A stretch of 64,000 nucleotides of DNA from NCBI GenBank assembly GCA_964016885.1, contig OZ024743.1:200446001-200510000 (forward strand), read 5' to 3'. Shown here piece by piece: positions 50,281-51,535 of the stretch. Numbering within the stretch: position 1 is the stretch's first letter; every line of letters starts with the position of its first letter. Made by a program: the position numbers and the translations under genes. The notes below the pieces were generated by a model. It ran no database searches. It saw nothing but the letters and a program-made list of their open reading frames with translations, and was not told the origin of the DNA. This DNA is from Eledone cirrhosa (taxonomy: Eukaryota).

Positions 50281-50392
50281 GGAACCAGTAAGACCCCGAC
50301 AGCTGAGCTCAAGCCGTTTCGACGGCTAATTCTGAACTAAATGGAAATTTATCCTGGTATTTAAATAGCCGATCTTCTCAAGGGGTAATTCC
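50281..50392 (-). ncRNA. Type I HHR, U3-A8 core variant (inverted copy)
   Basis: Minus strand ACCCC-TTGAGAA-GATCGGCTA..TAGCCGTC-GAAA-CGGCT TGAGCTC AGCTG-TC-GGGGT. Confidence 0.8.
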
Positions 50393-51319
50393 ATATATGG
50401 TCAAAGTGATTGTCAAAAATCAGTAGTAATTCTGTGGTTGCAATTTAGTAGGGGAGATGGTGGCTAAACCTGCCAGTAGGAGAAAGAGGGGAGGGGGTGG
50501 AGTAGACCCAATCAAGCGTTGGTAGTGCCAGCTACAGCTGGGCATGAGGTCAAAGGAGATACAGGGGAGGGGGAGGGGGAGGAAGTCGGAACGGTAGGTA
50601 GAACAATGGGGGGTAGAAATATATATATTTTTCCGTATTCTACCTTTACTTCGTACGAACTTTCATGTAGCTTGTTTTAGATCTTTTAGAGTTAGCATTA
50701 GTATATATTTTTCTCGGGACTCAGAATTATTATCTCGTACTAGTTCACTTTGCTGCACTGGGTGGTTGCTGGCATTGTGCCCGGGATGGAAACCGTTATT
50801 GTTTATTTCGCGGTAGTCTCTTTAGTATTTTGGCCCCTTTTGTTGACCCGTCACCGTATCATTTACGTACTTATACCTCTTAAAAGGGTCCTTGCCTATT
50901 CCGTCCCACCTAGTTCTTTTACTTATTTCGTTATTTCTTTATTTCTTTCTTTACTTCTTTCTTTCTTTATTTATTTATTTATTCTAGCCTAACAATAGCT
51001 AGAGACCTAGGTCGTAGAATTTAATTTACTTTACTTTTTTCTTTACACTTATTTGCTTTTCTTCACTCTCAGTATTTTTTCTTTCCTATATATTTCTACC
51101 CCCCATTGTTCTACCTACCGTTCCGACTTCCTCCCCCTCCCCCTCCCCTGTATCTTCTTTGACCTCATGCTCAGCTGTAGCTGGCACTACCAACGCTTGA
51201 TTGGGTCTACTCCACCCCCTCCCCTCTTTCTCCTACTGGCAGGTTTAGCCACCATCTCCCCTACTAATTTGCAACCACAGAATTACTACTGATTTTTGAC
51301 AATCACTTTGACCATATAT

Positions 51320-51431
51320 GGAATTACCCCTTGAGAAGATCGGCTATTTAAATACCAGGATAAATTTTCATTTAGTCCAGAATTAGCCGTCGAAACGGCT
51401 GGAGCTCAGCTGTCGGGGTCTTACTGGTTCC
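51320..51431 (+). ncRNA. Type I HHR, U3-A8 core variant
   Basis: GGAATT ACCCC-TTGAGAA(51331)-stem II-GAAA(51392)-CGGCTG GAGCT CAGCTG-TC(51414)-GGGGT CTTACT GGTTCC. Confidence 0.8.
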
Positions 51432-51535
51432 TATTACCCACTCTACTACCTCAAGTATTGAGTACTTTGGTGCGTTATGGTCCACCTGGTTCCTTACCAC
51501 ATTTCCTTCGTTATATATATATATATATATATATA

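Follow-up and report, generated by a model that had tools for sequence, protein, structure and literature searches.

Changing 3-8 core pairs in the conserved hammerhead motif of a probable Hydra-clade Penelope-type element family in Eledone cirrhosa

Layout of the insertion

The window is a stretch of 64,000 nt from Eledone cirrhosa, whose 3.0-Gb genome is rich in microsatellites. It holds an insertion at 50281..51512 with (TA)n on both sides and two inverted arms of 348 nt each (50278-50625 and 51087-51434) that mismatch at 6 positions. The features of the insertion and of related copies nearby are as follows.

50259..50280, no strand: (TA)n target, left side (sequence)
50278..50625, minus strand: inverted partial copy of the element's 3' end, which stops at the pLTR end and has no tail (98.3% complementary to 51087-51434)
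50281..50392, minus strand: left hammerhead motif, with its UUGAGAA core at 50381-50375 and a cut predicted after C50298 (descriptor, folding)
50623..51512, plus strand: 5'-truncated 3' UTR, pLTR, and tail of a probable Hydra-clade Penelope-type element (PLE) (96.7% identity to an intact unit)
51320..51431, plus strand: right type I hammerhead motif, predicted cut after C51414 (descriptor, folding, family alignment)
51326-51330/51415-51419, plus strand: stem I of the right motif (folding)
51338-51346/51384-51391, plus strand: stem II of the right motif (folding)
51392-51395 and 51395-51401/51407-51413, plus strand: GAAA and stem III of the right motif (folding)
51331..51337, plus strand: core U3-U4-G5-A6-G7-A8-A9, with positions 3/8 being C-G, U·G, U-A, or C·A across subfamilies
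51372..51376, plus strand: TTAGT in loop II, with a putative transcription start near A51374 and a hot spot of 5' breakpoints (alignment, breakpoints)
51435..51512, plus strand: 78-nt tail, present in the right arm only and running on into the ORF in tandem units (copy comparison)
51513..51536, no strand: (TA)n target, right side (sequence)
48728..48931, minus strand: short copy of the same family, doubled back on itself and lacking the 5' core half (sequence comparison)
27878..28087, minus strand: short copy from an older subfamily, likewise doubled back and lacking the 5' core half (sequence comparison)

The right arm extends 78 nt beyond the left-arm equivalent, to 51512, and an ORF search of the insertion found none in this local copy. 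When 50623-51512 was aligned with an intact unit of the parent element (L086), 854 of the 883 aligned bases were identical; the copy begins ∼400 nt past the ORF stop of that unit, and the 461 nt between the arms align to it as ordinary 3' UTR. The Penelope-type hammerhead proposed in an earlier note on this DNA is borne out. Judged from these comparisons, the locus is a dead, 5'-truncated PLE 3' end joined to a partial copy in inverted orientation, which is how PLE insertions usually look. The earlier note had also counted four related copies in the window. Those at 27878 and 48728 are related but hold no complete hammerhead, and the resemblance at 53835 is weak, that copy being a decayed remnant only.

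A different PLE remnant adjoins the insertion (48996-50263). It has inverted 113-nt ends, a 190-codon GIY-YIG fragment at 49155-49727 (+) with a cysteine-rich linker, and, near 50020-50047, a minimal hammerhead-like motif of the canonical form CUGACGA...GAAA. Tandem units of 188 and 244 nt, which we take to be tRNA-derived SINEs, lie at 5182-5529 and 15796-16270 of the window.

The parent is an autonomous PLE

Longer genomic copies run upstream into a GIY-YIG frame, and a tandem array on contig C1 with a period of ∼3,542 nt contains open frames of 784-786 codons (717 amino acids from the first Met). This array (G000:C1:91473251-91493724; L086-L088) consists of five tandem units and one inverted copy, three of them with open full-length frames, and may be the locus from which the youngest subfamily arose. 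In the 717-amino-acid ORF, an RT domain (RDD-type motif) is followed by a C-terminal GIY-YIG domain (VIY..YIG), both spotted by eye from their motifs; the protein also contains RWR, SDKTGN (DKT), CNCPDRSIC (CxCX5C), CNLCSEE (CxxC), and CKH (CxH). A Pfam search of two ORFs, including this one, gave no match, and a protein search returned 2,157 relatives, the best at 39-54%.

The unit is 3.54 kb long with a 1.1-kb 3' UTR and the 78-nt tail. Tail ends met (TA)n in 128 of 143 cases, and among 294 arms, 145 ended at the pLTR end and 119 ran into the tail, giving two fixed 3' ends (51434 and 51512 in the window). Protein motifs, ORF layout, and insertion into (TA)n make membership in the Hydra clade of PLEs highly probable, although that clade is described as short (<3 kb) with a canonical hammerhead, and here the unit is longer and the canonical core occurs in the oldest layer only. 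In a more distant Hydra-like family of the same genome (L413:3380-3420, ∼38% protein identity), a small hammerhead motif has the canonical CUGAGGA core.

These data bear on the proposal of the earlier note that the inverted-repeat element is itself the unit of a non-autonomous, retrozyme-like family, self-cleaving on both strands. The local copy does lack an ORF, and short palindromic copies with similar ends are abundant (21,375 tail matches). However, the parent has an intact ORF that is carried by the tandem unit, what lies between the arms is the 3' UTR of that autonomous unit, and the spacing between arms varies among loci. The junctions of short copies vary base by base and occur in every subfamily, which is what repeated independent truncation predicts, and the two arms would pair into a long duplex. 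We consider a retrozyme-like family very improbable and treat the insertion as a truncated product of the autonomous element.

Both arms carry a type I hammerhead motif

Both arms contain ACCCC-UUGAGAA-stem II-GAAA-stem III-GUC-GGGGU, which by sequence and folding corresponds to a type I hammerhead. When the 64-kb window was searched on both strands with a descriptor allowing all four Watson-Crick 3-8 cores, it gave three matches, namely, the two arms and an AT-repeat at 1010. In the right arm, stem I comprises 5 bp (ACCCC/GGGGU), a CUUACU bulge, and a distal GGAAUU/GGUUCC helix; stem II has 8 bp, one bulged U, and a 37-nt loop; and stem III has 7 bp. The hammerhead is the minimum-energy fold of this arm, with pair probabilities of 0.75-0.99. 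Scan, arm comparison, and right-arm fold together uphold the two-armed motif described in the earlier note. All required bases are present (U4 G5 A6, A9, G12 A13 A14, A15.1-U16.1, H17, and G10.1-C11.1), and the fold and an alignment of 30 arms agree with the type I architecture of three stems round the core with stem I open. The Watson-Crick 3-8 pair is U-A in both arms. At 51331, a T>C difference makes up ∼24% of the depth in one of four runs (contigs; the kind of run is unstated, and the figure has no bearing on expression).

The folding energy by itself did not exceed that of shuffled sequences (z, −0.58), an Rfam search of 51290-51450 gave no match at E ≤ 10, and among the 150 of 410 Rfam matches listed for the whole window, only microsatellite-driven miRNA was found. 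It is therefore family conservation, and not folding energy or Rfam, that sets the motif apart from chance.

In isolation, the left arm, in which U replaces G at the position of 51401, folds better by 2.3 kcal/mol into an alternative, and one natural C·A arm that we folded favors a non-hammerhead shape by 3.5 kcal/mol. The winner in both is a hairpin, AGCCG-UCGAAA-CGGCU (window 51385-51400), whose formation excludes stems II and III; in these folding models, it could act as a built-in off state.

The 3-8 pair occurs in four states across the family

Core matches were counted genome-wide with one shared flanking pattern, the unit being an arm with exact flanks and not an insertion. The pattern matched 7,127 times, and reversed controls gave 0. 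U3-A8 accounted for 5,454 cores (2,925 + 2,529), C3·A8 for 1,594, U3·G8 for 66, and canonical C3-G8 for 13, the C·A and U·G relatives thus having no Watson-Crick pair at this position. UUGAGAA is accordingly not private to this copy, and U3-A8 is family-wide; a CUGANGA consensus with UUGAGAA private to this copy, which the earlier note had named as fatal to its reading, was not found. The exact 19-mer with UUGAGAA had 2,885 genomic matches, and a 3' motif common to the later C·A subfamily and the first restored subfamily had 15,340, with 10,681 for the subfamily of the window. Descriptors built on CUGANGA, or even on U3-A8, overlook thousands of motifs of this PLE family. Among two-armed insertions with any C·A arm, both arms were C·A in 8 of 9, which indicates that the C·A state was already in the template.

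A mismatched form lies on the trunk leading to the window copy

Arm trees were built from 131 arms and then from 50 chosen among them, with columns 3 and 8 removed; subfamilies were delimited by us from the tree, and the samples were drawn from motif searches. The subfamilies form a ladder in the order UUGAAGA, UUGAAAA, UUGACAA, CUGAGAA (two subfamilies), and UUGAGAA, followed by UUGAUAA and the subfamily of the window. Divergence within subfamilies drops along it from 6.9-9% to 0.5%. In the 50-arm tree, position 3 changes twice, and a single clade of all U3 rows was rejected (p-AU, 1.2e-45). A tree of the endonuclease DNA, in which 4 of 45 rows (under 250 nt) were left out and the old U-A layer is absent, shows the same ladder. 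N7 and A8 align across subfamilies, which rules out a register shift (an N7 deletion) as a rescue of CUGAGAA. On these trees, the trunk runs from U-A through C·A back to U-A, placing the mismatched form on the line that leads to the window copy. Since a mismatched C·A subfamily was amplified on the trunk, the sequences argue that a Watson-Crick 3-8 pair is not required for amplification, while the fold is conserved.

Three older layers were collected by similarity to a C-G copy (2 of 86 rows left out). They joined the tree in the order UUGAUAA, UUGAGGA, and CUGAGGA; the first made up most of 378 matches, the second had U·G in 13 of 16, and the third had C-G in 8 of 15. The canonical CUGAGGA of the different Hydra-like family favors C-G as the ancestral state. 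The root is not fixed, because divergence is the same (about 9%) in all three of the oldest layers, the endonuclease tree joins the C-G and U·G copies in one clade as the sister group of the younger copies, and the old U-A layer is unplaced; the oldest step among C-G, U·G, and U-A may have gone in either direction.

5' breakpoints and a probable transcription start in loop II

From the first 100 of 21,375 matches listed, we examined 90 tail-bearing copies. The 5' breakpoints fell at 51362-51389 in 57 of the 90, and only three copies reached past the core. For the 87 short copies, this concentration departs from a uniform spread with a p value of 2e-18. The proposal that copies in the genome break off at the cut site was rejected, as only 4 of the 87 ended around it, at 51410-51419. 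On its left side, the peak begins at T[TC]AGT, a motif that 166 of 184 aligned arms retain within a loop II that otherwise drifts; at 51372..51376 it reads TTAGT, which we take to resemble the arthropod initiator. The breakpoints and the kept motif suggest that transcription probably starts in loop II, near A51374, and parts of the published accounts of PLE transcription place the promoter within the upstream pLTR (PMC2377424, PMC6765202). The alternative source of the peak is a structural stop of reverse transcription.

At the locus itself, cutting is unlikely according to the folding models. In read-through RNA of the insertion, 345 of the 348 bases of an arm would be paired with the opposite arm, and the putative loop II starts face outwards, downstream of the core. 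Self-cleavage on both strands here, as the earlier note had it, does not agree with such pairing. Taken by itself, it is a dead insertion of an ordinary kind at this locus.

Conservation of the fold and its possible meanings

Across 11 subfamilies, 1 of the 12 other core positions varies, whereas loop II varies at 27 of its 37 (p = 1e-4); the exception is C11.1, which is U in the oldest subfamily. In the seven youngest subfamilies, the numbers are 0 of 12 and 13 of 37 (p = 0.02). Each of the four bases occurs at N7 across the 11 subfamilies. The stems are 92% paired in 30 arms, above every slid control, although the rows are related, so that shuffle counts give no probability. Few stem positions vary, and the sole clear compensatory pair is a G-C/A-U swap in stem II in 11 of the 30 rows. 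AGU in loop II (51374-51376) is fixed, and AC(U) in the stem I bulge (51423-51425) is kept in most subfamilies; a short contact between the two is possible.

Judged by sequence, this is the signature of a conserved hammerhead, and activity is a separate matter, since 3-8 mutants of other hammerheads lose much or all of their activity and a dead core does not hinder PLE insertion in vitro. The earlier conclusion of a selected, active ribozyme is upheld as to conservation typical of a selected hammerhead. The double change that it rested on is no proof of activity, because the single-mismatch C3·A8 and U3·G8 subfamilies were also amplified. The expectation that an inactive core gives more long copies was not borne out either, as the rough fractions of arms reaching the core do not track the pair state (18% for U-A, 17% for C·A, and 7-10% for C·A).

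Three readings of this conservation can be weighed; sources marked "in part" are used for portions of their text. In one, the hammerhead is fully active and essential in every subfamily, its long-stem context tolerating U·G and C·A, for instance as wobbles. Over the C·A trunk, ∼0.30 substitutions per site long, the 12 other core bases are unchanged where ∼3.6 changes would be expected (P ∼0.03, a rough value); the long stem III and distal stem I favor a monomer fold; and tolerance of core changes is known to depend on context (PMC3884650). Against this, single mutants of the 3-8 pair abolish or strongly lower activity in the hammerheads tested (PMC11167929, in part; PMC9901934), genomic 5' ends are not in excess at the cut site, and the C·A arm prefers another fold. 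We regard full activity throughout as improbable.

In another reading, which we hold to be rather unlikely, the U-A and mismatched subfamilies no longer cut, and the sequence of the motif persists as a promoter and as a structure on which the element's protein docks or primes. The 3' half of the motif sits at the putative transcript start, ahead of the priming sites; cleavage was dispensable in vitro for another PLE (PMC11167929, in part); and U3-A8 gave no rescue in one deep scan (PMC9901934). Yet a fixed U4-G5-A6, a free N7, a fixed A9, and 3/8 changing via paired states are what catalysis predicts, and the core half with these bases lies upstream of the putative start. Natural U3-A8 is reported to be compatible with activity (PMC3088659, in part).

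The last reading, offered tentatively, is that one lineage walked in single steps through C-G, U·G, U-A, C·A, and U-A, every state being amplified across the genome and the wobble and mismatch forms still cleaving, and that the loop II start makes a joint module with the ribozyme. If so, the long stems and a loop II contact would hold the core of those forms together, and promoter, ribozyme, and priming signal would be one overlapping module setting the amount of RNA that is cut.

Overall, we think it likely that the locus is a dead PLE insertion with a conserved hammerhead that probably cuts slowly and is probably not rate-limiting for transposition. Measurable cleavage of the U-A form in vitro seems somewhat more probable than its absence.

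Proposed mechanism

Insertion would begin with the GIY-YIG nuclease opening the (TA)n target. Reverse transcription would then start at the two fixed sites (51434 and 51512), and both target strands would be extended, as described for an anole PLE in vitro (PMC11167929, in part), with two cDNAs joining head to head into inverted arms. Transcripts starting at the loop II TTAGT and primed near the RNA 5' end would yield the very common ∼200-nt palindromes. A complete hammerhead would be found only at the 3' end of a transcript or within tandem read-through RNA, where it would trim or circularize part of the RNA molecules. Selection may hold the fold and favor a 3-8 pair, a preference suggested by the regained U-A and by C-G, U·G, and U-A all being pairs, but it would be weak enough for wobble and mismatch masters to amplify. 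The element likely kept spreading whether or not the motif cut well.

Comparison with known systems

Hammerheads are nearly universal in PLEs, yet they cut poorly and were dispensable in the one in vitro system. The closest published likeness, in the parts of the text compared, is with the Cercyon PLEs of Schistosoma mansoni (Cervera and De la Peña 2014, PMC4209133): a pLTR with a type I hammerhead, a U3-A8 core in more than a thousand copies, most of them solo (about 1,300 matches in S. mansoni PLEs), a long stem II, a 5-bp stem I, and opposite-strand pairs 100-700 bp apart. The Cercyon motifs are minimal, without stem III, and are presumed to act as dimers, whereas the present family has a stem III of 6-7 bp and a loop II of 37 nt; the main-text parts compared mention neither wobble nor mismatch subfamilies, nor the order in which changes arose. 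Natural core variants (Perreault et al. 2011, PMC3088659, in part) likewise include U3-A8 covariation, as isolated examples with no intermediates. U3-A8 in Penelope hammerheads was therefore already published (PMC4209133 and PMC3088659, both in part) and is not in itself new; the earlier note had called it a rare tolerated covariant. When a type III hammerhead was scanned in depth, G3-C8 was the only combination that rescued the 3-8 pair (PMC9901934).

With the Hydra clade of C-terminal EN+ PLEs (Craig et al. 2021, PMC8557442, in part), the element shares RW[KR], DKT, and CxCX5C, the CxxC/CxH motifs around E and N, (TA)n targeting, and inverted 5'-truncated copies with a one-sided tail; it differs from the <3-kb members with canonical hammerheads in its 3.54-kb length, 1.1-kb 3' UTR, 78-nt tail, and non-canonical core. 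The tail concept comes from the same paper and from PMC11167929 (both in part). As in Anolis Poseidon PAc (Frangieh et al. 2024, PMC11167929, in part), the hammerhead adjoins the ORF start and reverse transcription would start at two sites, which in the anole PLE bound the tail. PAc belongs to another clade and, unlike our family, has a canonical C3-G8 pair; single 3-8 mutants kill its hammerhead, and hammerhead mutants leave insertion in vitro unaffected. Dispensability of cleavage, shown there in vitro, is suggested here by natural subfamilies. Non-LTR retrozymes (bioRxiv 10.64898/2026.07.22.740005, in part) also have a type I hammerhead of PLE origin, but consist of direct tandem non-coding units, in contrast to the inverted, truncated piece of a coding element in the window.

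A literature search found no stepwise 3-8 series, although Przybilski and Hammann 2007 and Lünse et al. 2017 may hold mismatch data, and, in a search that covered main texts and few supplements, no loop II start site reported for a PLE. Neither the element type nor its U3-A8 core is new, and what sets the family apart from these systems is the dated stepwise 3-8 series on one lineage. At the catalytic 3-8 pair, the family provides natural alleles that are dated and share a single sequence context, and it offers copy numbers as a read-out of success together with an intact ORF for testing.
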